Of a stretch of 64,000 nucleotides of DNA, positions 1,504 through 59,047 are shown piece by piece. The DNA is from Escherichia phage A5-4: the sequence record OP744025; one strand, written 5' to 3'. The notes under the pieces were generated by a model. That model worked only from the letters and a program-made list of their open reading frames with translations. It searched no databases and had not been told where the DNA came from. The first letter of the stretch is position 1, and each line of letters begins with the position of its first letter. Made by a program: the position numbers and the translations under genes.

Positions 1504-3036
1504 TTGAAGAAGAAGAATAAAGGTCGCAACACACAGGTTCGTAAAGCGACGAGCGAAGAATTAAACGTTGCTCGTTTACGAATGAGTGAGCAAGGTACTT
1601 TTGCTTTAGCTAAGGTTCAGGTGGAAACTGAACGTATGAAAGCTGAAGAAATTAAATGGCCTCAATTGATCGGTACGGTTGAAGCTATGAAACAAGATGC
1701 TACGGTAGCGACTGGTCTTGATATGCTTTACACTTTCGTAGAGAAAGCATTCAAGGACTTCAAAGTAATCCCTGGCAAATCTAAAGAGTCTCAAGACGCA
1801 GCAGAGTTCATTACCTTCTGCCTTCGTAACATGGAAGGTCAAACCCTGCGTCAATTTGCCCGTGACGCTGCCACATTTAACGAATACGGCATCTCTGTAG
1901 TTGAGAAGGTATATACTCAGATCCAGACTGGTGAATATGCAGGACGATTTAAGATTAAAAACCTTGCATTCCGTCCACAGGCTTCTCTGAGTCGTAAAAA
2001 CCCTCTCGTGTACAGCGATGATGGTTCTCGTGTTGTAGGTGTTAAGCAATCCCTTGATTCTTTCAAGAACTACACTGCCAGTCCTCTTGGCGCTTCTATT
2101 AGTGGCCTTATCGGCTCTCGTAAAGGCAATGACGTTGTAATCCCAGCAAACAAGCTGATGATCATGACTACTGGTGGTTCTTCTTCTCAAGCACTCGGCG
2201 TTTCCCCGTTGGTTGCTTGTTACCGACCTTGGCGTGAAAAGGTTCTTATTGAGAACCTCGAAGTTGTTGGTGCTACGAAAGACATGGGCGGCGTTATCGA
2301 ACTGAAGATTCCTTCTGCCATCCTTAACAAAGCTGCCATTGATCCTTCCAGCTACGAAGCAGAAATGGTTCAGGGTTTGATGATGGATGCTGCAAACGCC
2401 CACTCCGGTGAGCAATCTTTCTTTATGCTACCATCTGACGTTAAAGACAACTCACCTTTGTACTCAATGTCTCTGAAAGGCATTGATGGTATGGGTAAAC
2501 AGTACAGCACTCGCGACCTGATCAGTGATCGTAAGAAATCAATTCTTGATCGTTTAGGCGCAGGATTCTTGAACGTAGGTAATGATGCCTCTGGTTCATA
2601 CAACCTGTCGGAATCAAAACAAACTATCCATACTCAATTTGTACAACGTGTTAATGAAATTATCGCTGAAGCACTGAATGAAAACCTGCTCCCTCAGCTT
2701 CTGGCTCTGAACGGTATTCGTCTGGCAGAAAAAGAAATGCCATTCGTTAAATTTGGTCAGATCGTTGATACAGACATGGAAGGTTTCTCTAAAGCGGTTC
2801 AGCGTATGGGTGCTGTCGGCTACTTGCCTAAGACACCGGAAGTTATTAATCGCATTCTTGATGTTCTTGGAATCGATTATCAAGTTGGTGAAGATATTTC
2901 GCAAGAAGAACTTATGCTTCTCCTTGGAGATAATACCAGTCGTTCTGGAGATGGCTTTGCACAGGGGACTTCTGGAAACGGGACTGCAAAGATTAGCGGA
3001 ACAAGAGATAATTCAGTTTCTAATTTAGAAAATTGA
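1504..3036 (+). CDS. Portal protein
   Basis: 510-aa ORF directly after terminase; TTG start after GAGGGG RBS; position and size typical of portal. Confidence 0.7.
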   Translation: MKKKNKGRNTQVRKATSEELNVARLRMSEQGTFALAKVQVETERMKAEEIKWPQLIGTVEAMKQDATVATGLDMLYTFVEKAFKDFKVIPGKSKESQDAAEFITFCLRNMEGQTLRQFARDAATFNEYGISVVEKVYTQIQTGEYAGRFKIKNLAFRPQASLSRKNPLVYSDDGSRVVGVKQSLDSFKNYTASPLGASISGLIGSRKGNDVVIPANKLMIMTTGGSSSQALGVSPLVACYRPWREKVLIENLEVVGATKDMGGVIELKIPSAILNKAAIDPSSYEAEMVQGLMMDAANAHSGEQSFFMLPSDVKDNSPLYSMSLKGIDGMGKQYSTRDLISDRKKSILDRLGAGFLNVGNDASGSYNLSESKQTIHTQFVQRVNEIIAEALNENLLPQLLALNGIRLAEKEMPFVKFGQIVDTDMEGFSKAVQRMGAVGYLPKTPEVINRILDVLGIDYQVGEDISQEELMLLLGDNTSRSGDGFAQGTSGNGTAKISGTRDNSVSNLEN

Positions 3037-3102
3037 TCTTTGATTTAAATCAGACTCTTGCAAAACGAATCGTTCAGTGTTAAAATAAATATCACGGGAG
3101 CA

Positions 3103-3675
3103 ATGATGGAAAACATTACTATCTCCGACCTTCCTTCACAAACCTATCTGTCCCGAATTCAAAAGGGACGGGCTGTGAAAAAGGCCAATGAGCTACTTAA
3201 GCAGGGCTTCAATAAAGAAGCTTCTATTTCTGGAGCCATTGGCTCCGTTCTTGTTCAGAAATCTGCACAGAAAGAAGAGATGATTTCTTACGAAATTATC
3301 TACGAACCTGATACGCCGGATGCTCATGGACAATGGATGAGTAAAGAGACATTAGTTAAAGCACATGCAGATTTCAAGAAAGCTCAAGAAATCGGTGCGG
3401 TAACTGAAAACTTGTACCACTTGGTTGATACCGAAGCATTCAAGATCATAGATCATTGGATTCAGCCAGAAATTGATGTAACTGTCACACAAACAGGAGA
3501 AATCATAAAAGCAGGGTCATGGGTAGCAAAGGTTCAATATTCACCTGAAGTATGGGAGTTAAAGAAAGCTGGCATCGTCGGTGGATTATCTCTTCAGTGC
3601 GGTGGTATGTTGAATGAGGAAACAAATGAGCTATCCGATCTTGATTTCAGTATCGAATTGGAAGAGGAAGAATAA
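3103..3675 (+). CDS. XkdF-like putative prohead protease
   Basis: Motifs DAHGQW, GSWVAKV, GIVGGLSLQCGG resemble XkdF/DUF2213 family; ATG at 3103 after GGGAG RBS preferred over track TTG at 3058. Confidence 0.5.
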   Translation: MMENITISDLPSQTYLSRIQKGRAVKKANELLKQGFNKEASISGAIGSVLVQKSAQKEEMISYEIIYEPDTPDAHGQWMSKETLVKAHADFKKAQEIGAVTENLYHLVDTEAFKIIDHWIQPEIDVTVTQTGEIIKAGSWVAKVQYSPEVWELKKAGIVGGLSLQCGGMLNEETNELSDLDFSIELEEEE

Positions 3676-4769
3676 TGATTAAGACCCTTATAGAGAAAGG
3701 TCGCCAGATTAAATCTCGCGGAATTGCTCTAACTCACCGAGATCAAGGCTACAGTGCGAATAACCGCCACGTAAGCCTCCTCACTAAATCTGACATTGAC
3801 CCTAGCAAACTTACGGTTGATGTTATCAAAGCCCTTGAGCAAGTTCAAGTAACTATCAGTATGGAAGAGTTTTTACGTCGCTTCTTCCACATGTATTGTG
3901 ATGATGCTGAGTTACTTACTAAGCTGCTGGGCTTCACAACTAACTTCGAAGACGAATATGCTGATAAAGATCCTGAAGACTTGGATTCTTATACGGCTGA
4001 TTACATCCGTCGTCATCAAGAATATCTCGATGAGAAGCTTGAAACAATCACTATCATCAAGAAAGCAAAAGAAGGTGCTGACCTTTCTCTCGTTGAACGC
4101 TTCGAGTTAATTAAGACTCGCAAGCAGTTTGAAGACGGATGTAAAGAATTGGGCCTTGACTTTGGTGACAATTCAGAATTACGCAAACCAGAAACTGGTG
4201 AAGTAGTTAAATCAGCTACTAAGCCTGAACCTGTAAGCTCCGCTGGAGCGACCACAACCATCAAGGAGACTCCTGTGGAAAAAGAAGTAGATGTAACCAA
4301 GTCCCAACAATTCATTGATCTGATGAAAGCTAATGAAGCGTTGATGGCTCAGGTTGAAGGTATGAAAGAAACCTTCACCGCTGCTCAAGAAATCGTTAAA
4401 GCTCAGGCTGTTGCAAAACGTGAAGTTGCCTTGAACAAAGCTGCAAGTTTTGGTTTTGTTGCTGATGACCAACGTGAAGCTGTTGCTGACCTGATCGAAG
4501 ACCCAGCTAAAGCATCTGTTGTTGCTGTGCTGGAAAAAGCTGCTGCTGCTCTTAAAGAGAAAGACGAAGCTCTCGTCGCTAAAGATGCAGAAATCGAAGA
4601 GATCAAAAAATCCTTCGCTGACGGCAAAGAAGTAGGTGCTGATGGTCAACTGACTGAAGTTGCTAAAGGCTCTGAAGACGCTCAGGCTCGTTTGAACCGA
4701 GTAATCGCAGAACGTGCAGCAGAGATCGCTAAGGCTGCTAACGGCAATGCTGAATTTATTAACGCCTAA
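3675..4769 (+). CDS. Scaffolding-like coiled-coil protein
   Basis: A/E/K-rich acidic coiled-coil C-terminal half; between protease-like gene and capsid genes. Confidence 0.55.
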   Translation: MIKTLIEKGRQIKSRGIALTHRDQGYSANNRHVSLLTKSDIDPSKLTVDVIKALEQVQVTISMEEFLRRFFHMYCDDAELLTKLLGFTTNFEDEYADKDPEDLDSYTADYIRRHQEYLDEKLETITIIKKAKEGADLSLVERFELIKTRKQFEDGCKELGLDFGDNSELRKPETGEVVKSATKPEPVSSAGATTTIKETPVEKEVDVTKSQQFIDLMKANEALMAQVEGMKETFTAAQEIVKAQAVAKREVALNKAASFGFVADDQREAVADLIEDPAKASVVAVLEKAAAALKEKDEALVAKDAEIEEIKKSFADGKEVGADGQLTEVAKGSEDAQARLNRVIAERAAEIAKAANGNAEFINA

Positions 4770-4789
4770 TTATTGAGGAAACGAATAGA

Positions 4790-5221
4790 ATGGCTAAAGC
4801 ACATGTTGTAACTCTCGAAGGTAACTACTCTGATATCGTACTGGGCCGTGTTGTTGCATTTGGTGACACTGGTTGGAACTTTGAAGAATTAGAAATGGAT
4901 TATACTGCTGATCTGGTCGCAGGTCTGCTGGTTAAAGCTGATGGTACTCCGGCTGCTGTTGCAGACGCTGCTGACGTTTACGGTGTTCTGGTTGACCGTA
5001 AAGTTCTGCCTGGTGTTACCAAGCATGACGGCGCTACCCCGATGGCTGGTGAGAAGCTTCCTATGACTATCGCTGTTCGTGGTCTGACCCTGAACGCAAC
5101 CAAACTGGTCTACGCTGACGGTACTGCAATTGACGCTGCTGGTCGCCTAGCTCTGTCTAAAGCTGGTAACCAAGTAACTGATCGTGTAGTAGCTACCGAA
5201 TTCCTCGGCGCTGTCCTGTAA
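4790..5221 (+). CDS. Putative head decoration or capsid accessory protein
   Basis: 143-aa Ala/Gly/Val-rich protein immediately upstream of major capsid gene. Confidence 0.4.
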   Translation: MAKAHVVTLEGNYSDIVLGRVVAFGDTGWNFEELEMDYTADLVAGLLVKADGTPAAVADAADVYGVLVDRKVLPGVTKHDGATPMAGEKLPMTIAVRGLTLNATKLVYADGTAIDAAGRLALSKAGNQVTDRVVATEFLGAVL

Positions 5222-5244: not shown

Positions 5245-6240
5245 ATGCAAAATGGTGATTTTCAAATCCTGGATTACACTGGCCTGATCTCTACTCTGCC
5301 GCGTGTTGATACCCTGCTTCAAAGCATGAACCTGTTCACTGAGAACTTTGGTCGTACTACTATCGCTAAAATCGAACGTCGTGATGACGGTGCTGGTCAG
5401 ATCAATGCTGTACAGCGTGGTAGCGTTCGTCAGCACCTGGGTAATGATCGTAAAAAGATCGTAAACCTGAACATCCCGTTCTTCCCTCTGGACCGTTCTA
5501 TCGACCGTGCAGACATTCAGAACTTCCGTGAATTCGGTACTGACAACGCTCCGGCAACTGTTGAAGCTGAAGTGGCTCGTCACTTGGCCCGTATTCGTCG
5601 TAGCCATGCAGTTCTGAAGTCTAAAGCAATGTACGCTGCTCTGAAAGGTACTTCCTGGTCGCCAAATGATCCGGTTTGTGATTACGACTACTACGATGTT
5701 TGGGGTGTAACCCAGCAGACTGCTGATGTTGACTTCACCTCTCTGGCTGTTGACCCGATTGAAGTGCTGGAAGCTGAAGCTCGTGCACATATCATCGATT
5801 ACGCAGGTGATCAAGGCGACAACTACGAGATCGTTGTTATGGCATCCCGTCAGTGGTTCTCTGCTCTGATTTCTCACCCGCAGGTAACTGGTGCATACTC
5901 TCAGTATCCGTCTACTCAGGAAATCCTGCGTCGTCGTCTGGGCGGTAATGCTAATAACCGTATCTTCGAACACAAGAACATCCTGTTCATCGAAGACATT
6001 TCCGGTAACATCCCTGCTGGTGAAGCATACATCTTCCCTCGTGGTATCGATCGTATGTTCGAAATCTATTACGCGCCGAGCGACACTCTGGAAGGTGCTA
6101 ACCAAGTAGCTCAGGAACTGTATGTATTCTTCAAAGAATCTCAGTACCTGCGTGAAGCGAAGATCGAATCTGAAACTTCCTTCCTGACTGTTAACAACCG
6201 TCCTGAACTGGTAGTTAAGTCTGTTGGTAAGTTTGAGTAA
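5245..6240 (+). CDS. Major capsid protein (lambda gpE-like)
   Basis: 331 aa; strong RBS; followed by strong terminator; gene order matches lambda C/Nu3/D/E; resembles E-type capsid proteins. Confidence 0.75.
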   Translation: MQNGDFQILDYTGLISTLPRVDTLLQSMNLFTENFGRTTIAKIERRDDGAGQINAVQRGSVRQHLGNDRKKIVNLNIPFFPLDRSIDRADIQNFREFGTDNAPATVEAEVARHLARIRRSHAVLKSKAMYAALKGTSWSPNDPVCDYDYYDVWGVTQQTADVDFTSLAVDPIEVLEAEARAHIIDYAGDQGDNYEIVVMASRQWFSALISHPQVTGAYSQYPSTQEILRRRLGGNANNRIFEHKNILFIEDISGNIPAGEAYIFPRGIDRMFEIYYAPSDTLEGANQVAQELYVFFKESQYLREAKIESETSFLTVNNRPELVVKSVGKFE

Positions 6241-25722: not shown

Positions 25723-26364
25723 ATGGCAGAGGTTACAGAAAAGAAGGATGTTAACCACATACATCCTCTGCCTGATTTCGTCAAAGGGGGTATTGATTAT
25801 TTACCCCCTGAGATCTTTGAGAATAAAGATAATATCCAAAAGGTCCTTGAGATCTTCTTGAAACGTCTTGAACTCATAGATCAGAAAGCTGTTGAACTGG
25901 CAGAGATGAGAACGATCATCAATGCAGAGGGCGACACTCTCGACGAAATAGGCAGACAAAACGGTATCTTCCGTAACGGATTGAATGATCCTGAGTACAG
26001 GGCTGTTATTATAATCCTTACAGGTATTGGATCTAAAAGTGGAACAAGATCTGAAATTATATCCACATTGAAGCAATTATTCGGTGAAGAGGGTGTGACT
26101 ACCTATAAGGGTAGAAACTACCGTATGGATATTAACATCTTCAATACCTGTGTGGAAGTTGAGCTTATTCTTGACCAAATACTTGATATGCTCCCTCTGG
26201 TGACTCACTTGCGAGTTGTGGAGAATCAGGGATACCCGTTTGGATTTGAGGGTGACGAACAAGCATTTGGGTGGGCATCCGTCTACGACACTGATCGTAC
26301 TGGCGCGGGTGGACTTGCAACTTTAGTTTATGTATCTGACGACGAAGACCCTTGGGGCTTTTAA
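25723..26364 (+). CDS. Tail protein (gpI-like, putative)
   Basis: 213-aa ORF between J-like and fibre genes. Confidence 0.45.
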   Translation: MAEVTEKKDVNHIHPLPDFVKGGIDYLPPEIFENKDNIQKVLEIFLKRLELIDQKAVELAEMRTIINAEGDTLDEIGRQNGIFRNGLNDPEYRAVIIILTGIGSKSGTRSEIISTLKQLFGEEGVTTYKGRNYRMDINIFNTCVEVELILDQILDMLPLVTHLRVVENQGYPFGFEGDEQAFGWASVYDTDRTGAGGLATLVYVSDDEDPWGF

Positions 26365-26376
26365 TGGGAGAATTTA

Positions 26377-28011
26377 ATGGCTAGACCAACAACACCGATT
26401 GTTGTCTTTGCGGCACAAGATGTTAACCTTCCTGGTACTGGAAGACCTAACAAATCAAAACCGATTGATGACCTTTTAGCAAAGGGCTATGACAAAGGGC
26501 AAAAACCAGCGGCAGAAGAATTCAACTATATTCTTCACCAGTCTGGTGCTTGGCTTAATTGGATCGTAGAAGAGAAGTTTCCAGAGGTTGAAGAAGAATA
26601 CAAGCGACTGATTCAGGAACTCGAAACACGAGTAAACAATCAACTGGAAGTTATTCGTGAAGATGTTGCGAACGTAAGACAAGCTGTTGCAACCTTAAGA
26701 ACTTATGTAGAGCAGACTGTTGCAGATCTTCGTCGTGAGATCACTGCGGTTGATCAGCGTGTTACTCGTTTGTCTCAAGACTTGGATAATGCTGTTTCCA
26801 GATTGAACGCACGTATTGATGAACTTGAACCCCGTTTAGTCCCTATTGGTGCAATATTGACTTGGGCTGGTCAGGTCCCTCCTGCGGGATTCTTAGAGTG
26901 TAATGGTCAGGTATTTAGTACATCACAGAACCCGAAACTATATGAGGTTCTGGGAAGAAACGTGGTGCCTGATTATCGTGGACTCTTCCTTCGTGGATGG
27001 GCACATGGTTCTGGTGCTTATGATCCAGATTCTGGTCGTGGGTTAGGTTCTATACAAGGGGATGCAATTAGAAACATTACCGGAAACATGGGTTGGGAAA
27101 GTATCCGTACTGACCACGGATATCGCCAATCTGGTGCGCTTTATACTCAAGTTAACTCTTATGCTGGACCAGACCATGACGGTGGAAACCCTGCTGGCGA
27201 CATTAAGTTCGATGCAAGCCGAGTAGTTCCTACCGCACCGGAAAACAGACCTAAGAACGTCGCGGTAATGTATATTATCAAGACTGACCAAGCTCAAGGG
27301 ACAGGGAGTTTATCTCCTACTGCGCTTGTTACGACACCAGATAGCATTACTAACCGTGTTGGATTTACTCGTGGAATTTCTGCACAGGTACTTCCTGCCA
27401 ACTTAGCAAGTCAATACCCTGTAACTTGGACCTCTCAAAATGGTAACGTTGCAACGGTAGATAGTGCGGGTAACGTAAGACTGACTGGCCCAGGTGAGAC
27501 AAACATTATAGCTTCTATCGCTACTGGAATCTCGGCTCAAATTAAGATAGTTTCGTACACAGCCCTGAGTGCCGTTTCTATTGGGACAATACCGAGTATA
27601 CAGGTGAACAGATCTGAACTGATCCCTGTGAATAAAACACCTGCGAACTCTAACGAACCACTTGAATATTCTAGTAGTAATTCTAACGTAGCTGTCGTGA
27701 CTCAAAGCGGGTATGTTTCTGGTGTTGCTCCAGGTACTGCTGTTATTACTGTTCGTGGATCTATTACAGGTATCCAAGCAACGAGACAAGTTACAGTTAT
27801 TCCAGCCGTAATTGTTCAAACTATCGAAGATGTTCGTTTAGGTATTGAGCAACAAACCACTATGAATGGTGATAACTATACCACCCCTGTTCGTGCTCCG
27901 GCAGGATGTGTTATTACTGGTGTTGTTTCAGCGGGACTTGGATTAAACCAAGGTTATTACAAGCCAATCCAGAAGCGTATGTCTGGCGTATGGGTAACGG
28001 TGGAGGGCTAA
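26377..28011 (+). CDS. Tail fibre protein with tail-collar and Ig-like domains
   Basis: Coiled-coil N-part; collar-like motif FLECNGQVFSTSQNPKLYEVLG; tandem Big_2-like segments. Confidence 0.75.
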   Translation: MARPTTPIVVFAAQDVNLPGTGRPNKSKPIDDLLAKGYDKGQKPAAEEFNYILHQSGAWLNWIVEEKFPEVEEEYKRLIQELETRVNNQLEVIREDVANVRQAVATLRTYVEQTVADLRREITAVDQRVTRLSQDLDNAVSRLNARIDELEPRLVPIGAILTWAGQVPPAGFLECNGQVFSTSQNPKLYEVLGRNVVPDYRGLFLRGWAHGSGAYDPDSGRGLGSIQGDAIRNITGNMGWESIRTDHGYRQSGALYTQVNSYAGPDHDGGNPAGDIKFDASRVVPTAPENRPKNVAVMYIIKTDQAQGTGSLSPTALVTTPDSITNRVGFTRGISAQVLPANLASQYPVTWTSQNGNVATVDSAGNVRLTGPGETNIIASIATGISAQIKIVSYTALSAVSIGTIPSIQVNRSELIPVNKTPANSNEPLEYSSSNSNVAVVTQSGYVSGVAPGTAVITVRGSITGIQATRQVTVIPAVIVQTIEDVRLGIEQQTTMNGDNYTTPVRAPAGCVITGVVSAGLGLNQGYYKPIQKRMSGVWVTVEG

Positions 28012-28013
28012 TT

Positions 28014-28526
28014 ATGAGAATGAATAACTTCAAGCTTTATACACCGGAAGTTAAAGCTTTTGGAGAGGGTGTTCAGTATTTTCAGGACGATAAAGGTCGT
28101 GATTTCTACGACTCTCGTGAACTGTTCAAAAAGAAATATGTTGTTTTCTTTGATGAACATAGCATTGTCCGTGGCTGGGCAAAGAGTGAAGAGGTTACCC
28201 GTCTTCACCCAGGTGGTTTGTCTGTTGTGGATCTTAATACACTCCCCAAAGATTTTTCTTTGCAAGGTGGTGTTTGGTCATTCAACGGTAAACAGGTAGT
28301 TAAGGCAGATTATGACCCTGCTTTTAGCACCGCTGCAAGAAAGGCTGGCATTCTGCAAGTGATCGGTTCTGTTATCGTCCCGCTTCAGGATGCTGTTGAA
28401 TTGGGAGATGCTACAGACGATGAGCTTGAGAGATATAACGATCTTCGCAAGATGAGAGTTAAAGTCATGCGTATCCCTGATAGCACCTCCCCTGGTGATA
28501 TCGACTGGTCAGAGTTCACCTTTTAA
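28014..28526 (+). CDS. Tail fibre assembly protein
   Basis: ~170 aa directly downstream of fibre gene; ATG at 28014 with GGAGGG RBS. Confidence 0.6.
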   Translation: MRMNNFKLYTPEVKAFGEGVQYFQDDKGRDFYDSRELFKKKYVVFFDEHSIVRGWAKSEEVTRLHPGGLSVVDLNTLPKDFSLQGGVWSFNGKQVVKADYDPAFSTAARKAGILQVIGSVIVPLQDAVELGDATDDELERYNDLRKMRVKVMRIPDSTSPGDIDWSEFTF

Positions 28527-28534
28527 CCTTAGAT

Positions 28535-28554
28535 AAGTCGGGCTTCGGCCCGAC
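28535..28554 (+). other. Stable hairpin without U-tract
   Basis: AGTCGGGC-TTCG-GCCCGACT perfect 8-bp stem. Confidence 0.4.
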
Positions 28555-28565
28555 TATGGAGACTT

Positions 28566-28898
28566 ATGATTGTTGATATAATGGCAGTTCTGAAAGCACT
28601 TTGGGGTCTTTTAACATTCATTTTGCTGGGTGCACTAAAGATCTTTTACACCGACTTTAAAAAATTAGAGTCACGTCAAAGTGAGCTTGAAAAAGATGTT
28701 CTTCGTTTGAAGGAATCTGCGGTTACTAAGGATAGTATCGATGCCATTCTTGACCGTAAGATAAAGCATATCACTGATACGATTCAAGATATCAGGACCG
28801 ATATCACAGATATGCGAAAGGAAGCGAAAGAAGAAAACCACGCTCTACAGAAAGATATTCGAGAGTTACTAAACAAAATTATTGAGAACCGCAAATGA
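28566..28898 (+). CDS. Membrane-anchored coiled-coil protein
   Basis: N-terminal TM helix then heptad-like charged region. Confidence 0.55.
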   Translation: MIVDIMAVLKALWGLLTFILLGALKIFYTDFKKLESRQSELEKDVLRLKESAVTKDSIDAILDRKIKHITDTIQDIRTDITDMRKEAKEENHALQKDIRELLNKIIENRK

Positions 28899-29353
28899 TT
28901 ACAGCCATAATATATGGCATTTGTTTCGTAATCCTTGCTACTCGAAAAGAGAGTGGAACAAAGATAATGGCTGGGCTTTGCCTAGCCTATCTCGTATTGG
29001 AGAACCTGATCCTTTGGTTCTTCTCTACGCAACAATATTTCGACATCACTCTTTATTTTAATGTTCTCTGGACATTGGATTCGATACTGCTTTTCACTAT
29101 GGGTTGTACAGTGAAAGGATTACGACAAAAGCTTATCGTATGCCTAAGTATTCCGTTCATGCTTATTCAAGTGTTTGCAATCCAATATCCAGAATTGTTC
29201 CCCTTATGGGTTTACGAATTCGCTCTTAGAGACGCTCACAAATATTTCATAGAAACCTTTGTGTTCGTTTATTCTTGGAAGGATAATACCGTACCGGAAT
29301 GGATAAGAACAGCAGTAGTGATATTTCTAGTGCTCATTGCCCACATGGTATGA
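28895..29353 (+). CDS. Multi-pass membrane protein
   Basis: 152 aa, about four hydrophobic helices; coupled start. Confidence 0.55.
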   Translation: MITAIIYGICFVILATRKESGTKIMAGLCLAYLVLENLILWFFSTQQYFDITLYFNVLWTLDSILLFTMGCTVKGLRQKLIVCLSIPFMLIQVFAIQYPELFPLWVYEFALRDAHKYFIETFVFVYSWKDNTVPEWIRTAVVIFLVLIAHMV

Positions 29354-29375
29354 ACATTGATAATGAAGGTGATCT

Positions 29376-29636
29376 ATGTTAAAATTTCTCAAAGACCTAG
29401 TGACCTCTGCGGTGGAACCAGATAAAGCTTCTCATACGAAGTTTTGGTCTAACGTAGGTATGGCTGCTATGACTGCCGTCTTTCTCTGGTATGGATTCAA
29501 CAATACATTGCCTGAATGGTACGTATGGCTTTATGCCCCTACGGTAGTGGCCCCACACCTGTTGAGTGACCTCATCAACCTCCGTTGGGGATTATCTTTG
29601 AAAAAAGATAAAGACCCTTCCGACGAAAACAAGTAA
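29376..29636 (+). CDS. Small two-TM membrane protein (holin-like)
   Basis: 86 aa, two hydrophobic segments, charged C-tail. Confidence 0.45.
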   Translation: MLKFLKDLVTSAVEPDKASHTKFWSNVGMAAMTAVFLWYGFNNTLPEWYVWLYAPTVVAPHLLSDLINLRWGLSLKKDKDPSDENK

Positions 29637-29648
29637 GAGGAGAAAACT

Positions 29649-32600
29649 GTGTCGTCTAATACTGATATATTGGCACTGGTAAGCACTGAAGCAGACCTCG
29701 CTGTTGATCAGATCATCGAAGACTCTCGAAGACTTCATTTGATCGTCAACGGAACTGCAACAGAACAAGCTGTTACAGAAGATGGTAGCTTAATTCCTAG
29801 TGTACGTAAAGCGATAATTGATAACTTTTATTTTAAAACTCCACCGTTACCGTGGAGAAATGGAAGTTCAGTTATTGAATTCAATCAGTTGTATGCCTTT
29901 ACCGATGTAAATGGCAACGTAACTTGGTGGTATGCCCCAGGTGCAACCAGCAGTACCCCTGTCGTTATGCGAGATAGTCCAATCAACGACGGGAAGTTTA
30001 GACCTTTCTTCGATAAAGGTAACATTCAAGAAACTTACGCCCCTATCCTTTCCCCTGTCTTCCGTGGAAACCCTACCGTACCCCTTGCTGCTGAAGGCGA
30101 TAGCTCATTTACTATCGCGAACACCGCTTGGGTTAGCCGAGAAATAGAAAAAGTACGTGGTGAGGTTCTTGAAGAATCCAGAGGTGAATTCCAAAACATT
30201 ATCGTTGCAGATGATGCGAGTCTGAAAGATCTCTATGTAAGTGGAGAAACCATCTTTACTGGTGATAGGATCGCTGCTCTTGATGCCGAGTTATCTTTAA
30301 AAAGATTACGAATGACAGGTACAGGCGCAGAAATCGCATTTGAACAAAATGGTGTTCCACCCCAAGCAGGATTAACAAAAAGAACAAATATCAAACCTTT
30401 CCAAGTCACCACTGGGGTTGTTGATACAGATAATATAACTGCGAGAGAGATCAAGGTTGGAAATACCTCTGTTTCCACGAATTCCCTCGATGTTGATGGA
30501 TTCATGCAAGGTGACTATCTTCACTTACAGGGTAATGCCAACAACGCAGAAGACCGCCCACAACTGATCGTTGACGGTGTTGCGGAAATAAATACTCTTC
30601 GTGTGACGAACACCATTGAAGGATTGAAGGCTGACGTTGAAGGTCTGGATATTAATCCTAACAGTATTGTGGTTGAAAGAACTGCGGAGATCAAGGGAAA
30701 TACAACCCTTGGTGCAGATCTTTCCGTTTCTGGCAATACCGTATTGAAAGATGTACGCATCGATGGTACTCTTACTGGCGCGGGAATCGGCGTTGATGGT
30801 AAAGATATTTCTCCTCGTAACGTGAGTGCAACATCCGTAACAGTTGCAGAGAATTTAAATATCACAGGTCCAACTAATGCTTCCGGCGATGTTACAGTAA
30901 ACAACCTCACTGTTAACGGGACACTTAGAGCAGATATCGATTTTGGAACAAGTGCTGTTGAATTTCAAGATTTAACTGTAACCAATAGAGCTACGATTAA
31001 AGATCTTGAGATCACTGGCAACGTTACAGGTTTTACTCCCTCTGTTGATGGAGAAGCAATATCCCCTTCATCTGTGACAACGACAGGGAACATTGATGTT
31101 GGAAACAATCTACGTGTCCGTGGCGATCTTAGCCTAGATGGTGAATTGAGCCTTCCAAGCTTAGATACTGGAGATATCTCCGCTGCTGAAATTGACGCTG
31201 CAAGTCTTTCGGTTAGTGGTGACATTACCGCAGGGACAACCTCGACTACAACGGTTAATAATCTTGTGGTAACAGGAACCACTACAGGAATCACTGTAAC
31301 GGGAAATGTTGATGGGCAAGACATTCTCCCATCGTCGGTAGAAACAACGTCTGTAGAAGCTTCTGAGAGCGTTACAACGGCAAACCTGACAGCCACTGGA
31401 GAAACTCAGGTAAATAACCTGACAATCACGGGAACTGTAACAGGTTTTGAAGTAGACCTCACTGGAAGGGACATTCAGGTTAATACCCTGACGGTTACTC
31501 GTGGATCAACTTTTGACGAGGTTACTGCTAATAACATAACCAACAATCAAAAGATTACTACGGTAGATCTTCAGGTAACTGGAAACCTGACAAATGCCAA
31601 TGGTGAGCAATTCTTTGCAAACGTCACTGGTCAAGACATTCTTCCAAATAGTGTGCAGTCTGCAACGTCTGTGAGAACTAAAACGCTACGTGTCGAAGAG
31701 ACTAGCCTCTTGGAAGGTGCTGTTACCTTAAATGATGGTTTGACTATCACCGCTGGTAATATCACATCTGTTCAAGGTCAAGCAAGCTTCAATGACGTAC
31801 AGGTATTTGGATCTCTTCTGGACGCGAATGGTAACGCCTTAGGGACAGCGGAAAGCATAAACGGTAAAGATATCTCTCCCCGTAGCGTAACCGCTCAAGT
31901 TGAGATTCAGACTACTGCAATTGTTGCTACAGGTCAAGCTGAAGTTGGTTCTTTGATTTCAACTGGACAAGTAACGGCAGGAAGCTTAGAGGTTTCAGGG
32001 ATAGGCAACATTGATCAAGTCATCACCGATGATATCCGTGCTGGTAAAGTGACTTCCGGTAACACTGTTATCACTCGCACTGTCGGGTCTAATGACCCCG
32101 CTCTTGAAGTTCGTGGACCAGGTGAGATTCAGGGCGACCTTAATGTAACCGGAACTGTAACTGGTAACATTGACCTTAGCTCTCAAGACGTTAACGTTGC
32201 TTCTATGACCTCAACGGGAACAGTAAATGCCCTTTCCATTGAGTCTCGTACATCGGTAACTGGATTGTCTGGTACATTCGGTGAAGATTATGAAGGTGCA
32301 CCTACCTATGGTATAACTTCTCTTTCCGGCGCAAACATCAACAAGAACCTTCGAGTTGGTGGAAACCTGACTGTTGTTGGTAACATCTCTGGCAATATCG
32401 ACTTATCTGGAAAGGCGATCGAGCCTGCATCTTTGTCTACCACGACAGCTACGTTAACGACGGCGAACATAACAGACCTGACTGTAACTGGTCAGTTTAA
32501 TATCCCGACTGTACCGTTAAATGTTCAATCCCTTAGTTCTGAAAACGCTATTTCTGCAAGCAAGTTCAGCACCACACCAAAAGAAGTAAGCACCACCTCT

Positions 32601-32882
32601 TCTTCTTACATCCCAGACGGCTCAACGAGCATATATAACGTAAACGTTATAAATGATGTTGAAGTGAAAGCGCCGATTGGCCTGTTGAGTTCAGGAAAAG
32701 GTGAGTCAGTATTCCTCTTCTTTGAACAGGATGGTACTGGTGGACATGCGGTAACATTCGGATCGGAGTTTGTTGTGCACGGTACTGAAACCATCAACAC
32801 AGATGCAAACACTGTGTCGGTAGTTAACATGGTTTATCGTGGCAAAGGCCCATTGATTGACGTATTCATCACTCGTCGCTAA
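29649..32882 (+). CDS. Large tail fibre / tail spike protein
   Basis: 1077 aa; N-terminal TAWVSREI-type attachment motif; long iterated NxT/GxVxG beta-helix-like repeats; GTG start after GAGGAG. Confidence 0.8.
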   Translation: MSSNTDILALVSTEADLAVDQIIEDSRRLHLIVNGTATEQAVTEDGSLIPSVRKAIIDNFYFKTPPLPWRNGSSVIEFNQLYAFTDVNGNVTWWYAPGATSSTPVVMRDSPINDGKFRPFFDKGNIQETYAPILSPVFRGNPTVPLAAEGDSSFTIANTAWVSREIEKVRGEVLEESRGEFQNIIVADDASLKDLYVSGETIFTGDRIAALDAELSLKRLRMTGTGAEIAFEQNGVPPQAGLTKRTNIKPFQVTTGVVDTDNITAREIKVGNTSVSTNSLDVDGFMQGDYLHLQGNANNAEDRPQLIVDGVAEINTLRVTNTIEGLKADVEGLDINPNSIVVERTAEIKGNTTLGADLSVSGNTVLKDVRIDGTLTGAGIGVDGKDISPRNVSATSVTVAENLNITGPTNASGDVTVNNLTVNGTLRADIDFGTSAVEFQDLTVTNRATIKDLEITGNVTGFTPSVDGEAISPSSVTTTGNIDVGNNLRVRGDLSLDGELSLPSLDTGDISAAEIDAASLSVSGDITAGTTSTTTVNNLVVTGTTTGITVTGNVDGQDILPSSVETTSVEASESVTTANLTATGETQVNNLTITGTVTGFEVDLTGRDIQVNTLTVTRGSTFDEVTANNITNNQKITTVDLQVTGNLTNANGEQFFANVTGQDILPNSVQSATSVRTKTLRVEETSLLEGAVTLNDGLTITAGNITSVQGQASFNDVQVFGSLLDANGNALGTAESINGKDISPRSVTAQVEIQTTAIVATGQAEVGSLISTGQVTAGSLEVSGIGNIDQVITDDIRAGKVTSGNTVITRTVGSNDPALEVRGPGEIQGDLNVTGTVTGNIDLSSQDVNVASMTSTGTVNALSIESRTSVTGLSGTFGEDYEGAPTYGITSLSGANINKNLRVGGNLTVVGNISGNIDLSGKAIEPASLSTTTATLTTANITDLTVTGQFNIPTVPLNVQSLSSENAISASKFSTTPKEVSTTSSSYIPDGSTSIYNVNVINDVEVKAPIGLLSSGKGESVFLFFEQDGTGGHAVTFGSEFVVHGTETINTDANTVSVVNMVYRGKGPLIDVFITRR

Positions 32883-32885
32883 TAG

Positions 32886-32910
32886 AGGCCCTTCGGGGCC
32901 TTTTCTTTTT
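32886..32910 (+). terminator. Rho-independent terminator
   Basis: AGGCCC-TTCG-GGGCCT hairpin then TTTTCTTTTT. Confidence 0.75.
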
Positions 32911-32921
32911 AGGAGGACAAC

Positions 32922-34157
32922 ATGATCCCTTTTCCAATTATTAATTTCGGTGGCGGTGTTCCACTACCTATAGGCGTTACAATCAAGTATGCAGTAAGTA
33001 CCAGCACCGGAAATATTTTTATTCTGCTTACCAATGGGCATCTATATGTAACCGGATCTAATTATCTAAACGGGCTTGGTAAAACAGGGACCACAAATAA
33101 TGCAACTTCGGGATGGTCACTTACTAACACAGGTGTTGAAGAAGTTTATGAGGTAGGAACAGAAAGTACACTGTACGGCGGTGTGTGGGTTAAGAAAAAT
33201 AATAACCACTATGAATATATCTCTGCTGTGGTCTTTCCCACTGTTGACACAACTCTCCAAAACAGTTGGAACGTCTTGCCTGAATCCGCATACATCGTTG
33301 ATGGTGTAAATATTTTATCTTCAGCAATACAAATAGCCAGATCATACGCGATCCAACCCGACGGCACTGTTTACAGACTGCTTCCCGAGGGGCCGCAAGT
33401 AGCTTGGCCTGAAAAAACAAAATACCTGTATTTTGCAAACTATAATGCTATTCGTGTCGAGGTGGATGGGACTTTAAAATACCGAGGCGACAATGGTGTA
33501 GATCAAGTGGCAGGCACTTCTGCCGGAACAACATTATCAACTTGGACAACCATCGGGGATTCTTCTGTAAGGTATATTAGGGCAAAATGTGCTCGTGGTC
33601 AAGTGGCTAACACGAGTGGCGGTTCAGGTGCTCAATCTATTGTACTTGTTGTTGCACAGAGGGAAGATGGGTCATGGGATGCAGTTGGATCGACAGCAAG
33701 AGCAGGGATAAACTCAACCAACGTCCTCGGTCCTAATTTAGCACCTATGACAAGCATACCTGCGGGGGTTGAAGTTTATGTCACTAACCAGGTCAGTTAT
33801 ACAAACGCAAGTGTGGGAACAAGGGGAGCATTGCAAGTGTTCATCTCCGATAGGGTTAATGGCATCTATCAATCAACGGGTGGACAAGGTGGATACACCT
33901 ATTCTTTATTTAGGAATCTTTCTATAACCACTAATGCAACATCTTTCGATAATATATCTGAAGATATTATAAACGATGGTGGTATCCTTCACATGACGGG
34001 TTCATTATCCGATACTTTCAAAGTGATTGTTAGTGGTAATGGTAATCTTTACTGGACAGGGAGAGGATATTCAGGGGCTATGTACCCTGCTGACTTTACG
34101 GCCTCTAATACGATAGCTCAGAAGTTTAACTTGGAAGGTATAGTTATTCCAGCATAA
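32922..34157 (+). CDS. Repeat beta-propeller-like tail accessory protein
   Basis: 411 aa with RCC1-like motifs (LYVTGSNYLNGLG, LYWTGRGYSG); last gene of plus arm. Confidence 0.55.
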   Translation: MIPFPIINFGGGVPLPIGVTIKYAVSTSTGNIFILLTNGHLYVTGSNYLNGLGKTGTTNNATSGWSLTNTGVEEVYEVGTESTLYGGVWVKKNNNHYEYISAVVFPTVDTTLQNSWNVLPESAYIVDGVNILSSAIQIARSYAIQPDGTVYRLLPEGPQVAWPEKTKYLYFANYNAIRVEVDGTLKYRGDNGVDQVAGTSAGTTLSTWTTIGDSSVRYIRAKCARGQVANTSGGSGAQSIVLVVAQREDGSWDAVGSTARAGINSTNVLGPNLAPMTSIPAGVEVYVTNQVSYTNASVGTRGALQVFISDRVNGIYQSTGGQGGYTYSLFRNLSITTNATSFDNISEDIINDGGILHMTGSLSDTFKVIVSGNGNLYWTGRGYSGAMYPADFTASNTIAQKFNLEGIVIPA

Positions 34158-34161
34158 AGAA

Positions 34162-34186
34162 AAGGCGCTCAAATGAGCGCCTTTAT
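34162..34186. terminator. Bidirectional terminator between convergent arms
   Basis: AAAGGCGCTC-AAAT-GAGCGCCTTT hairpin flanked by A-run and T-run. Confidence 0.8.
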
Positions 34187-35899: not shown

Positions 35900-36472
35900 T
35901 CAAGGACGTTTCGGTGGACTAACGACACCTTTTTTAGATAAAGGTAATTCGTCTGCATCTTTTCCACGGAGAGATTCTAACCACTCATCTAAAGATAGAG
36001 GTACTTTGCCAACACCCTTGGACCATACAGATAAGCAATACAGGTCGTATGCAGATGGGCCAGCATCACCCTTGTCACCATACGGCCCTTTTAAACTCGC
36101 CAACCAATCCTTTTCATTCAGTGGGATAGTGCCTGGATCTTCTTGTCGAAGAACTCTTAGGTATGTTTCATAAGCAGACTCTCCACGGGGACCCATTGGA
36201 CCAGGTAAACCTTGCGGTCCCTTTGCATACTCTAAATATGCAGACTTTGAACCATCATTGACCACTGAAACTTTATACAATGACCAAGCCAACAGAACTA
36301 TCCAACAAGCAAACAATGCAAGCGGGTAAGGGATCATTGAAGTAAAGAATGACAGGGCTAAAATTACAACCTTGTTCTTGTGATCACGACGGAAAGCGAT
36401 GATCACAGGGGCTAACCAGATAGCAAAGATAACCCACGCAGATAAGATAAACAACCAACTAATGTATTCCAT
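35900..36472 (-). CDS. Two-TM membrane protein with collagen/fibre-repeat ectodomain
   Basis: N-terminal hairpin of two TM helices (AFRRDHKNK...CWIVLLAWSL) then GPQGLPGPMGPRGE, SAYETYL, DWLASLKGPYGDKGD, SAYDLY, EWLESLRG; GAGGAGG RBS. Confidence 0.7.
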   Translation of the reverse strand: MEYISWLFILSAWVIFAIWLAPVIIAFRRDHKNKVVILALSFFTSMIPYPLALFACWIVLLAWSLYKVSVVNDGSKSAYLEYAKGPQGLPGPMGPRGESAYETYLRVLRQEDPGTIPLNEKDWLASLKGPYGDKGDAGPSAYDLYCLSVWSKGVGKVPLSLDEWLESLRGKDADELPLSKKGVVSPPKRP

Positions 36473-58118: not shown

Positions 58119-58329
58119 TATTTAGTTCCTCATATTCATATGGGTAGAGTAGATATCCTTTGTTGTCTTTTAGTGCTACGGCTATAACACTCTCAAGGTA
58201 AAAATCATCATCATAGTGAATTTCTTCAATTACAAGAATATCACCTTTCTTTGGATGGTCATCGCGATCACTGAAATCATTTAGTAACTTTATTTTTACG
58301 TTTTTCATATAACATCTCCGCTGCCACAA
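58111..58329 (-). CDS. Hypothetical small protein
   Basis: 72-aa ORF. Confidence 0.5.
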   Translation of the reverse strand: MWQRRCYMKNVKIKLLNDFSDRDDHPKKGDILVIEEIHYDDDFYLESVIAVALKDNKGYLLYPYEYEELNND

Positions 58330-59001: not shown

Positions 59002-59047
59002 TTTTCCTCCAATTGAGGACCCAGCTTATCACTGGGTCACCCTCTTG

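Follow-up and report, generated by a model that had tools for sequence, protein, structure and literature searches.

The T4 holin gene t directly follows tail-fibre gene 38 and lies far from the endolysin gene e. In the dual-start motifs of lambda S and phage 21 S, two starts are set apart by basic residues, and the pinholes made by pinholins do not let soluble endolysin out. All experimentally confirmed holins are late genes (PMC9239132), and the same study, of phage Mu, left open the role of DUF2730-type proteins in phages with soluble endolysins. According to the genome papers, no holin has been identified in LL12/rV5-like phages or in KPP-1, CB7 has only a candidate holin, next to its SleB-like gene, and the Septuagintavirus paper lists two hydrolases only. 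Here, we analyse three consecutive membrane-protein genes, A, B and C, in a phage of the last of these groups. Comparison with other phages suggests that this trio may be the missing cell-bursting timer, that is, a holin plus helpers.

The stretch analysed (64,000 nucleotides, hereafter the window) comes from a Septuagintavirus (Vequintavirinae) phage and is 99.6% identical to Escherichia phage A7_1; the phage is a virulent myophage of 140 kb and is not transposable. Along the + arm of the window, tail, baseplate and fibre genes come after the large terminase gene (TerL). The ORFs confirm that the trio lies where the original prediction had placed it, between the tail-fibre assembly gene (Tfa) and a large fibre gene (Table 1), and it is the sole membrane-protein set found on this late arm. 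The start of B overlaps the stop of A (ATGA). A terminator scan around the trio found none between Tfa and the 1077-aa fibre gene, the hairpin between Tfa and A going unreported because it has no T tail, and promoter-like sites were not enriched in a promoter scan of the same region. The place of the trio in the fibre operon on the structural arm, together with its tight junctions, points to late expression. The GC content of A and B is 37-39%, against 44% in the flanks, which we judge uninformative because these genes are rich in membrane and Lys/Glu codons.

Table 1. Features in and around the trio and at the SleB/CwlJ-like locus of the window.
Feature	Coordinates	Strand	Evidence or description
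Tfa (tail-fibre assembly gene)	28014-28526	+	PF02413 Caudo_TAP E=3e-11; phrog_136 E=2e-39
GC-rich hairpin GTCGGGC-TTCG-GCCCGAC, no T-run	28536-28556	+	read directly; between Tfa and A
Gene A	28566-28898	+	110 aa; phrog_5345 E=1e-35, full length
Gene B	28895-29353	+	152 aa; phrog_7451 E=1e-61, full length
Gene C	29376-29636	+	86 aa; phrog_1322 E=1.3e-29, full length
1077-aa tail-fibre gene	29649-32882	+	phrog_4549 E=2e-249; W70 orthologue detected in virions
70-aa two-TMD ORF	58277-58489	-	ATG overlaps SleB stop (ATGA); holin/pinholin-like candidate
SleB/CwlJ-like hydrolase	58486-59001	-	PF07486 E=2e-23; phrog_938 endolysin E=6e-27; TIGR02869 E=2.5e-17

A, B and C are real genes and not chance ORFs, since all three show full-length matches to PHROG families, homologues recur and so does the gene order. 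Using tblastn, we detected homologues of A in 219 phage records, of B in 106 and of C in 373. The order Tfa-A-B-C-fibre was seen again in 29 IMG/VR loci, the adjacency of Tfa and A is retained in CB7, PVP-SE1, rV5, phAPEC8 and Aeromonas 2L372X, and the conservation of both A and C extends from Septuagintavirus as far as rV5, phAPEC8 and Aeromonas Plateaulakevirus. Pfam and NCBIfam searches with the three proteins returned only coiled-coil noise and nothing meaningful. The transmembrane counts first proposed (one, four and two for A, B and C, respectively) are reasonable but not exact: depending on the source, B has three segments, six helices or four transmembrane domains (TMDs), and C has two helices or one TMD.

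Conservation within the block is strongest for C, which consists of an N-terminal amphipathic helix, an SHTKFWSN motif and two membrane helices and ends in a charged C-terminal tail (LKKDKDPSDENK) that is variable in every alignment. In the structural model, of low confidence (pLDDT 59), the helices span H19-41 and H47-71 (23-25 residues each) and enclose hydrophobic stretches at residues 27-43 and 48-66; they are weakly hydrophobic, falling below the standard Kyte-Doolittle cut-off (KD 1.6), and the homologue in the PVP-SE1 record is given one TMD. With at least one TMD, C is of holin size (usually under 150 aa), and its charge distribution indicates a probable N-in/C-in topology. We favour a holin reading of C because of its 86 residues, two helices and non-conserved charged tail, and because the trio is the only membrane set found on the structural arm while confirmed holins are all late. 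Against this reading stand its unusual conservation and its invariant polar residues (SHTKFWSN and LRWG), and no dual-start motif is present. PHROG 1322, the family of C, bears no annotation beyond 'membrane protein'. Its longer members, of 150-167 aa, carry an extra N-terminal TMD and a long charged tail, a class I-like layout. Neither C itself nor its close relatives matched Pfam DUF2644, a distant relative (L084) scored just below threshold (20.8 bits against a cut-off of 22), and one cluster has a precomputed PF10841 match.

Elsewhere, C-like genes belong to compact lysis cassettes of unrelated phages, most clearly in the Mu-like Pseudomonas phage Bise. There, the order is Mor, an M15 endolysin, the C-like gene, an Rz-like gene with an embedded lipoprotein, a coiled-coil protein and TerS. 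The Bise endolysin (Peptidase_M15_4, phrog_2649 1.6e-32) has no signal sequence, and its stop is overlapped by the start of the C-like gene (phrog_1322 1.2e-19); the Rz-like protein has 165 aa, and its gene contains, in the +1 frame, an ORF for a proline-rich lipoprotein (lipobox LAVSAC); the protein before TerS is a 92-aa coiled-coil protein with an N-terminal TMD. Metagenome contig L143 has the same layout. In metagenomic contig L079, the C-like gene is followed by genes for a 149-aa coiled-coil-plus-TMD protein and a PF00959 lysozyme (9e-39), with overlapping stops and starts. In contigs L104 and L132, the gene of a Glyco_hydro_108 endolysin (1.5e-21 and 7.6e-20, respectively) comes first, then that of a 146-aa protein and then the C-like gene. 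Including L150, six loci thus place a C-family member next to an endolysin or spanin, and this adjacency comes only from distant homologues of C (23-44% identity). The flanking endolysins belong to three classes, M15, GH24 and GH108; differing endolysin classes beside one small membrane protein are the mix-and-match pattern typical of holins. C-like genes also adjoin a one-TMD coiled-coil partner in eight loci (L070, L080, L086, L140, L147, L148, L150 and L158), and L131 encodes, two genes away from its C-like gene, a protein that attains the Pfam DUF2730 threshold (25.5 against 24.9 bits).

About half of the C-like contexts outside Vequintavirinae show no endolysin within the flanks examined, and in this genome C is not next to an endolysin or spanin gene, SleB being ~29 kb off and the M15 endolysin and spanins lying outside the window. 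When the C-family HMM was run against the lysis regions of Mu, Pasteurella AFS-2018a, Shewanella MuM16-2 and Pseudoalteromonas HS6, none matched; Bise was the sole match among Mu-like lysis regions, so C-like genes are not a general Mu-like feature. Even so, a lysis role, which the original prediction had offered as one option for the whole trio, is the best-supported reading, mainly for C, because C-family genes fill the holin slot of compact cassettes in unrelated phages.

The genomic setting also fits a role of the trio in assembling or positioning tail fibres or baseplates at the inner membrane, with A as a tethered partner of the fibre shaft or of Tfa and no part in lysis. A always directly follows Tfa, the PVP-SE1 genes overlap Tfa, and C always stays within the baseplate/fibre block, even where this is rearranged (in the phAPEC8 type: gp25-like, C, J ... 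Tfa, A). C-like genes follow fibre genes in L070, L086 and L147 as well, and the heptad-rich tail of A shares weak coiled-coil Pfam matches with the N-terminus of the 544-aa fibre. The conservation of C can be read both ways, since it equals that of the baseplate proteins while the neighbouring fibres diverge strongly. We nevertheless consider this role unlikely: C-like genes occur with no fibre gene nearby in Bise, between Mor/endolysin and the spanins, and in L079, beside terminase and lysozyme genes; long-form relatives are found in replication modules; and a place at the end of the fibre operon suits a late lysis gene too, as with T4 t. We know of no membrane-anchored fibre chaperone.

The same block contains virion proteins, and an injection role had been raised for the trio; its proteins would then be minor virion components that form or guide a DNA-injection channel across the host inner membrane. 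Its place among the baseplate and fibre genes agrees with this, as does the record of phage Paula, which labels the C homologue a 'conserved phage structural protein'. However, mass spectrometry of W70 and CB7 virions detected the flanking fibre and baseplate proteins and neither the trio nor Tfa, a non-detection that is not absolute, as small hydrophobic proteins can escape the method. In W70 virions (ESI-MS/MS; block 96% identical), the products of genes 106, 107 and 112 onward were detected and those of 108-111 were not, and in CB7 the 'MS/MS confirmed' note is carried by CB7_29-31 and 36-37 but not by CB7_33-35. An injection role therefore seems very improbable.

The hydrolase proposed as the lysin is present as first described, with a SleB/CwlJ-like domain and a Sec-like N-terminus. 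Its N-terminal sequence, MKKLVLCGLICTLSLAPGVTYA/KE, resembles a cleavable Sec signal; AxA-type cleavage motifs occur in the SleB proteins of the window, CB7 and rV5, and the CB7 and rV5 orthologues look cleavable too. Compared with a SAR-type releasin partner, it starts with MKK and has a core of 12 residues with many Cys, Gly, Thr and Ser, yet this ends in the typical AxA-type motif. Among the window ORFs tested it is the only lysin-like gene, as had been claimed, but the same genome type encodes a soluble Peptidase_M15_4 endolysin outside the window (UPEC06 26460-26843, QUL77199, E=6e-15), which has no membrane-protein neighbour. Directly upstream of TerL, just outside the window, UPEC06 encodes a typical i-spanin/o-spanin pair (LVGC lipobox in the o-spanin), and the CB7 paper reports a spanin pair at the same place in Certrevirus, rV5 and PVP-SE1. 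The proposed split of lysis functions between the arms is thus right in that the lysis genes are dispersed, but a simple division, with the trio on one arm and the lysin on the other, fails because SleB has an overlapping two-TMD partner and because a second endolysin and the spanins lie outside the window. This 70-aa partner and the M15 endolysin were both overlooked in the original prediction.

The 70-aa ORF is the main competitor of C for the holin role, possibly as the pinholin-like half of a pair with the exported hydrolase; the trio would then have another membrane function or be at most an accessory of lysis inhibition or timing. It has TMDs at ~2-20 and 39-57, an N-terminus (MIKRM) that in its sequence resembles the dual-start pattern of pinholins and holins, with two potential starts that differ by two basic residues, a basic C-terminal tail (KRKNKVTK) and a start that overlaps the SleB stop by 4 nt, suggesting translational coupling. 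The CB7 authors proposed its positional analogue, CB7_82, as a class II holin; the CB7 SleB was toxic when expressed, and CR3_087 has been linked to lysis. The distribution of the 70-aa ORF argues otherwise: tblastn detected it in the five closest phages only, and the rV5 SleB stop overlaps rIIA instead, without any small membrane ORF there, so it is not the holin of the whole group. On the minus arm, the pair is surrounded by helicase and early-type genes, with what reads as a perfect sigma-70 -35 hexamer upstream, and the soluble M15 endolysin would not escape through a pinhole. We think it unlikely, on balance, that this ORF is the holin in place of C.

Gene A encodes a short acidic N-terminal tail, one N-terminal TMD, a KK junction and a charged helical domain of ~80 residues (21 K/R and 20 D/E). 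D4, K10 and D30-F-K-K are invariant in the family; D4 precedes the TMD, and the invariant K32 follows it together with K33 (90% or more of the sequences). By the positive-inside rule, A is predicted to be N-out/C-in with its charged domain in the cytoplasm. In this predicted topology it shows the architecture of the Mu releasin gp25 (DUF2730), namely a TMD, a short periplasmic tail, a dibasic junction and a cytoplasmic helix, and it is therefore a candidate holin regulator. The genomic position of A is not that of a releasin gene, being in the fibre operon, ~30 kb from SleB, in a phage that is not Mu-like.

Profile comparisons point in the same direction, though faintly. An hhalign comparison of the A family with DUF2730 gave a probability of 65% (P=6e-5) over 76 columns that include the TMD, and bias from TMD and coiled coil is possible; its score of 30.1 was ~5.8 sd above that of column-shuffled controls (mean 14.3, sd 2.7, max 23.8). 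When the A-family HMM was run on 2651 ORFs, six of the seven DUF2730 proteins were the best non-family matches, and the DUF2730 HMM, after itself, found ~20 A-family ORFs as next best (E from 2.6e-4). The A protein of PVP-SE1 matched phrog_736, the Mu gp25 family, over its full length (E=0.0099). Neither A nor five members of its family matched Pfam PF10805 even at E<=10, whereas Mu gp25 scores 50 bits. Coiled-coil and TMD proteins readily give false profile matches; we regard the similarity between A and DUF2730 as weak and borderline but reciprocal. The A family showed no significant hhalign similarity to the set of Bise, L143 and L131 partners (probability 1.8%), so the link between A and phrog_462 rests solely on phAPEC8 gp177 (E=5.7e-7). 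Among 1.84 billion representative proteins, the A-family profile found only 16 matches, none with an informative domain; most are phage-type proteins of ~100 aa, and one of 207 aa looks chimeric. A search for related loci with Mu gp25 returned near-identical Mu copies only.

B is a multi-pass protein in which three segments pass a strict hydropathy cut-off, whereas its AlphaFold (AF2) model (pLDDT 82) has six helices and the homologue in the PVP-SE1 record four TMDs. All B homologues carry a precomputed PF26221.1 match, a family that no paper was found to mention, and fold searches returned generic helical bundles only, so that neither sequence nor fold provides a functional link. B is absent from rV5 and phAPEC8 and may be a lineage-specific accessory membrane component. 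It has conserved polar intramembrane residues, which would also suit a superinfection-exclusion, immunity or receptor-masking module. Exclusion genes often adjoin receptor-binding genes, as T5 llp and T1/phi80 cor do, and the trio is similarly placed; in PHROG, phrog_1322 falls into the category 'moron, auxiliary metabolic gene and host takeover', and A weakly matches phrog_1625, 'bacteriocin production or immunity' (E=0.001). Against such a module, the genes are core rather than accessory, their synteny being kept in different genera and in hosts that range from Escherichia to Aeromonas; they are embedded with tight or overlapping junctions in a late operon, while exclusion requires early expression; no signal peptide or lipobox for outer-membrane targeting was found in A, B or C; and a scan of species-representative bacterial genomes showed the family to be nearly absent from prophages (one locus). 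An exclusion function is thus improbable.

Taken together, we favour, with middling confidence, a model in which C is the holin, A its regulator and the lysis genes are scattered over four loci; each functional step that follows is inferred. The trio would be a late-expressed inner-membrane module controlling lysis. C, as a class II-type holin, would build up in the inner membrane while late genes are expressed and would then make it permeable, freeing the soluble Peptidase_M15_4 endolysin. Depolarisation might follow as well, which would switch on the Sec-exported SleB-like hydrolase. Disruption of the outer membrane would come next, by the Rz/Rz1-type spanins whose genes lie upstream of TerL. 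As a membrane-tethered cytoplasmic coiled coil, A would tune the activity of C or of the endolysin, whether as antiholin, releasin-like protein or timing factor, and B would be an accessory membrane protein of some lineages only. More tentatively, A and C may be one case of a widespread, hitherto overlooked two-component lysis-timing module, made of a phrog_1322/DUF2644-like holin and a membrane-tethered coiled-coil partner that either shares ancestry with the Mu releasin (DUF2730) or has converged on it. It is possible, if doubtful, that this module ranges over Mu-like, rV5-, phAPEC8- and PVP-SE1-like, Aeromonas and many uncultured phages, and that B joins it as a third subunit in Vequintavirinae, where it would co-ordinate the M15 and SleB-like hydrolases from within the fibre operon.

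Few phages are isolated and put to use in therapy and biocontrol as often as the rV5-, PVP-SE1-, CR3- and phAPEC8-like myophages, and several of their genome papers state that a holin cannot be found; C with A as its partner is a concrete and testable candidate. If C is a holin, it defines a new holin family, now annotated 'membrane protein' only, makes this the second large phage lineage after the T-evens with its lysis clock inside the tail-fibre operon, and offers a lead on DUF2730-type proteins in phages with soluble endolysins. An A-C module, if real, would extend releasin biology beyond transposable phages and SAR endolysins. Lysis-timing genes also matter for burst-size engineering and endolysin production.

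Several described systems resemble parts of this arrangement. In the XhlA-XhlB-XlyA modules of PBSX and SPbeta, a one-TMD coiled-coil protein and a small two-TMD holin likewise form a pair where the tail-fibre genes end, but there the XhlA TMD is C-terminal, the endolysin gene adjoins the pair and the phages infect Gram-positive hosts; matches to XhlA were faint and far below threshold (E=0.012 for the rV5 A protein and E=0.49 for a Bise-type partner). A resembles the Rz/Rz1 spanins in having one N-terminal TMD and a charged coiled coil, with weak Rz-like PHROG matches (E ~2e-3). We rejected the spanin option that the original prediction had included: the charge distribution of A predicts N-out/C-in, the opposite of an i-spanin; no o-spanin is embedded, overlapping or adjacent, with no lipobox ORF in any frame across 28566-29700; and the typical pair already sits upstream of TerL. 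As in T4, the candidate holin module directly follows the fibre-assembly gene within the fibre operon, and the endolysin and spanins are encoded at distant loci. There, however, a single gene is inserted where three membrane genes stand here, and its product T (218 aa, one TMD, a large periplasmic domain) shows no sequence likeness to the proteins of this locus, nor do the antiholins RI and RIII.

C differs from holins in general in that here it is not beside an endolysin and, with no dual-start motif, has weakly hydrophobic helices and an unusually conserved sequence; no sequence relation was found between it and any named holin family, its PHROG name being 'membrane protein'. Its homologues nevertheless fill the holin slot by M15, GH24 and GH108 endolysins and Rz/Rz1 spanins. 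Like the class II holins (such as phage 21 S68), C is small, with two helices, a probable N-in/C-in topology, a variable charged tail and a place in a late operon. For A, the comparison is with Mu gp25 (PMC9239132). A falls below the Pfam model, lies ~30 kb from the exported hydrolase and is not within five genes of an endolysin; the signal of the SleB-like protein looks Sec-cleavable rather than like a SAR domain; and the system here, unlike that of Mu, is predicted to have a holin. The two proteins are of the same size class (110 against 99 aa) and share a short acidic periplasmic N-tail, one TMD in a predicted N-out/C-in orientation, a dibasic junction and a predicted helical cytoplasmic domain of ~75-80 aa, and L131 has a genuine DUF2730 protein along with its C-like gene.

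Over positions 26000-33000, the window shares 99.6% identity with Escherichia phage A7_1 and 92-96% with W70, A73, LTH01 and UPEC06, near relatives for which the genus Septuagintavirus (Vequintavirinae) has recently been described (PMC11370258). The plus arm (~1-34200) opens with the large terminase gene (TerL), followed by tail, baseplate and fibre genes, and the minus arm holds mostly small genes together with replication genes. Hydropathy scanning of the window found genes A, B and C as the sole membrane-protein set on the plus arm and numerous small membrane ORFs on the minus arm. At the start of the latter, a protein with three N-terminal TMDs continues into collagen-like G-X-Y stretches (GPQGLPGPMGPRGE ... 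GPYGDKGDAGP). The trio lies between a Caudo_TAP fibre-assembly gene (Tfa) and the gene for a 1077-aa fibre, whose GTG start is 12 nt from the end of C, and its three ORFs have exactly the coordinates of the original prediction. The transmembrane counts proposed there (one, four and two) held as to membrane character, while the exact numbers are uncertain. A has a single N-terminal hydrophobic segment, then ~80 residues including 21 K/R and 20 D/E; B is multi-pass, with six helices in its predicted model (pLDDT 82) and four TMDs by the count of the PVP-SE1 annotators; C has an amphipathic N-terminus followed by two long helices of weak hydrophobicity. The hairpin ahead of the trio could be an RNA processing/stability element or an attenuator.

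Coordinates of the trio, the SleB/CwlJ-like hydrolase locus and associated features in the window
Feature	Position	Strand	Details
Hairpin GTCGGGC-TTCG-GCCCGAC	28536-28556	+	between Tfa and A; strong, without a T tail
Gene A	28566-28898	+	110 aa; ribosome-binding site GGAG
Gene B	28895-29353	+	152 aa; start within the A stop codon (ATGA)
Gene C	29376-29636	+	86 aa; GAAGGTGA site of its own
Bidirectional terminator	34161-34184		boundary between plus and minus arms
Collagen-like protein	35900-36472	-	190 aa; start of minus arm
70-aa ORF	58277-58489	-	directly 3' of the SleB-like gene; ATG overlaps its stop codon
SleB-like hydrolase	58486-59001	-	PF07486 at 2e-23
TTGACA hexamer	59046-59051	-	perfect; upstream of the SleB-like gene, 17 nt 5' of TGATAAGCT (~59020-59030; extended -10-like)

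Each protein matched a PHROG family end to end (E=1e-35 for A, 1e-61 for B and 1e-29 for C), with tblastn matches in 219, 106 and 373 phage records, respectively. The order Tfa-A-B-C-fibre is common to CB7 (CB7_33-35), PVP-SE1 (gp44-42, where the junctions overlap from Tfa onward) and 29 IMG/VR loci. Aeromonas phage 2L372X has it as well; its B-like multi-TMD ORF (~147 aa, ~5500-5960) falls in an annotation gap of the deposited record (MK813938, L007). The order is Tfa-A-fibre-C-fibre in rV5-type phages, with a short-fibre paralogue in place of B; in phAPEC8-type phages, A still follows Tfa and C lies between the gp25-like wedge and J-like baseplate genes. A and C thus constitute a conserved pair, with B confined to particular lineages. 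C is the best conserved gene of the block (80% identity to CB7, 60% to PVP-SE1 and 49% to rV5), its identity equalling or exceeding that of the J-like baseplate protein wherever the J-like gene was detected. Exclusion would agree with the PHROG category, but it is at odds with this core, late-operon, cross-genus conservation of the trio and with the scarcity of the family among prophages of species-representative bacterial genomes (one locus). The injection-related role that had also been considered, or any role as virion components, is contradicted by two virion proteomes: mass spectrometry of W70 and CB7 found the flanking fibre and baseplate proteins abundant and detected none of A, B, C and Tfa.

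C had no match in Pfam or NCBIfam models, and C-like genes in unrelated phages were found through the C-family alignment in IMG/VR, metagenomes and GenBank phages. Pseudomonas phage Bise is Mu-like and transposable, with Gam and Mor genes; a proline-rich lipoprotein, MFRLLLPAICLAVSAC..., is encoded in the +1 frame of its Rz-like gene. From its gene content, the Bise region reads as a full endolysin/holin/Rz-Rz1 cassette whose sole holin candidate is the C-like gene; a diverged metagenomic relative (L143) is laid out alike. In L079, a C-like gene is followed by a 149-aa coiled-coil protein with a C-terminal TMD and by a PF00959 lysozyme (9e-39), with overlapping stops and starts throughout and terminase and portal genes adjoining. 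The order in L104 and L132 is a Glyco_hydro_108 endolysin, a 146-aa protein and the C-like gene. This ~146-aa protein (L104 3116-3556, L132 790-1227) is conserved and carries an HExxH-like motif (TAIHELIHILL), and could be an unrecognised lysis-cassette component. A protein above the Pfam DUF2730 threshold lies two genes from the C-like gene in L131, and L150 has a C-like gene flanked by a coiled-coil-plus-TMD protein and an i-spanin-like protein. A one-TMD coiled-coil partner adjoins the C-like gene in seven further loci (L070, L080, L086, L140, L147, L148 and L158), and such pairs frequently lie where fibre genes end.

C-like genes lie within two genes of an endolysin in at least four settings that are unlike one another, with three different endolysin classes involved; we estimate, rather than compute from a null, that a random gene in a phage of 50-250 genes would lie within two genes of its endolysin with a chance of ~2-8%. 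A role of the trio in fibre or baseplate assembly agrees with its synteny, yet it is at odds with the C-like genes in fibre-free lysis cassettes. Given the endolysin adjacency, the size, the two helices and the variable charged tail, holin is the best-supported function for the C family, a case of guilt by association at 23-44% identity.

A long form of the family (150-167 aa in uncultured contigs) carries an additional TMD at its N-terminus and a long tail of acidic or basic charge. In Stenotrophomonas Menderavirus phages, whose replication genes are T4-like, in Xanthomonas phage X1 and in many uncultured-phage contigs, it occurs alone, on the opposite strand, in replication modules. Such lone genes were seen between DNA polymerase and dUTPase/regA of large phages (L066, L088, L082, L093 and relatives; L099), the X1 protein (L099) being 97 aa long. 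In Stenotrophomonas phage Moby (NC_048802, L100 ~3500-3700), the C-like ORF is unannotated, the opposite-strand ORF gp033 being called instead, and an annotated terminator follows it.

An Asp ahead of the TMD of A is invariant and a Lys-Lys behind it invariant or nearly so, a charge pattern that predicts an N-out/C-in topology and a cytoplasmic coiled coil. This is opposite to the topology of an i-spanin and the same as that of Mu gp25, a 99-aa 'releasin' required for membrane release of the Mu SAR endolysin; gp25 exposes no more than four residues to the periplasm, and its dibasic junction is conserved (PMC9239132). Pairwise BLASTP of A with gp25 gave E=9e-4 over the N-terminus and TMD, and the PVP-SE1 A protein matched phrog_736, the family of gp25, over its full length at E=0.0099. 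Using hhalign, a 23-sequence A alignment matched seven diverse DUF2730 proteins with a probability of 65% (P=6e-5, score 30.1); the reversed alignment scored 17.4, and 60 within-segment column shuffles scored 14.3 on average (sd 2.7, maximum 23.8). Among 2651 six-frame ORFs, the top non-family matches of the A-family HMM were to six of the seven DUF2730 proteins, and the next ones to the C-like genes' partners in L079, L080 and Bise, and a DUF2730 HMM placed ~20 A-family ORFs next after its own family, from E=2.6e-4. No A-family member reached the Pfam PF10805 threshold, the A family and Bise-type partners aligned insignificantly in hhalign, and TMD-plus-coiled-coil proteins readily give spurious profile matches. 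By architecture and context, A would be a membrane-tethered regulator of the releasin or antiholin type and at most a possible DUF2730 member. In the representative library, a 207-aa protein (P0097) has an N-terminal domain bearing an HxxxH-DE-type motif (THSNVFHADE) fused to an A-like coiled coil without TMD, and is probably a chimera created by assembly or gene calling.

Several polar residues inside the helices of B are strongly conserved (D62, S63, Q92, Q97, H115 and E120), and its confident model matched only generic helix bundles. Every B homologue (P0102-P0139) carries the precomputed Pfam label PF26221.1, of which no mention was found in the searchable literature. B is dispensable in the rV5 and phAPEC8 lineages. 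B may have an accessory role, such as antiholin or stabiliser; alternatively, its role may be unrelated, such as immunity.

The SleB-like proteins of the window, CB7 and rV5 have a basic start, a ~12-residue hydrophobic core and an AxA-type site, so that the signal peptide of the original prediction has the appearance of a cleavable Sec signal; the CB7 paper likewise gives the protein a signal peptide. That paper reports toxicity of the SleB-like protein upon expression and refers to a study in which the CR3 homologue was implicated in lysis of the host. Its authors also proposed CB7_82, the positional analogue of the 70-aa ORF, as a class II holin. This ORF, missed in the original prediction, has two TMDs, an N-terminus MIKRM and a basic C-terminal end (KRKNKVTK). 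Its two in-frame starts with basic residues between them are reminiscent of the dual-start motif in the holins of lambda and phage 21. It may act as the holin in this phage, and it could even be the sole one there, but not in rV5-type relatives: it was detectable in the five nearest phages only, and in rV5 the SleB stop overlaps rIIA, leaving no small membrane ORF, so it cannot be a group-wide holin. In rV5_ev158 (L036), a 4-nt overlap joins the SleB-like gene (2498-2998) to rIIA (2995-4977); in rV5-type phages the partner to which the exported hydrolase is translationally coupled is thus not a small membrane ORF but a gene that the record annotates as 'lysis inhibitor'. Identity of the 70-aa ORF to its relatives is only 86-93%, below that of SleB to LTH01 (100%) and of the fibre block to A7_1 (99.6%), which indicates local mosaicism. 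Promoter-like elements upstream of SleB, where an inverted repeat (GACCCAG/CTGGGTC) overlaps the TTGACA hexamer, suggest early or middle transcription of the pair by host sigma-70.

Outside the window, two more lysis loci are present in the closely related UPEC06. One encodes a Peptidase_M15_4 endolysin of 127 aa that lacks a signal sequence and has no membrane protein encoded beside it. The other, immediately 5' of TerL, encodes a 119-aa protein whose TMD is N-terminal and then a lipoprotein of 99 aa (lipobox LVGC), and is the position at which the CB7 paper places the spanins of Certrevirus, rV5 and PVP-SE1. Even without the trio, the lysis genes thus occupy at least three loci.

The LL12, KPP-1 and CB7 papers left the holin of such phages unidentified or only guessed at it, the lysis entry in the Septuagintavirus paper (PMC11370258) consists of two wall hydrolases, and database labels for the trio read 'hypothetical' or 'membrane protein'; C is here proposed as a candidate new holin family, with A as its releasin-like partner. 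The proposal is based on comparative genomics. Late transcription of the fibre operon would yield C, A and B together with the fibres; C would build up in the inner membrane, and A (and B) would set or restrain its triggering time. Triggering would release the cytoplasmic M15 endolysin and, through collapse of the membrane potential, may also unleash the periplasmic SleB-like enzyme, and the spanins encoded beside TerL would finally break the outer membrane. T4 has a similar arrangement, its holin gene t coming after fibre gene 38 and its endolysin and spanin genes lying elsewhere; the candidate holin proposed here likewise lies by the fibre genes, apart from the other lysis genes.
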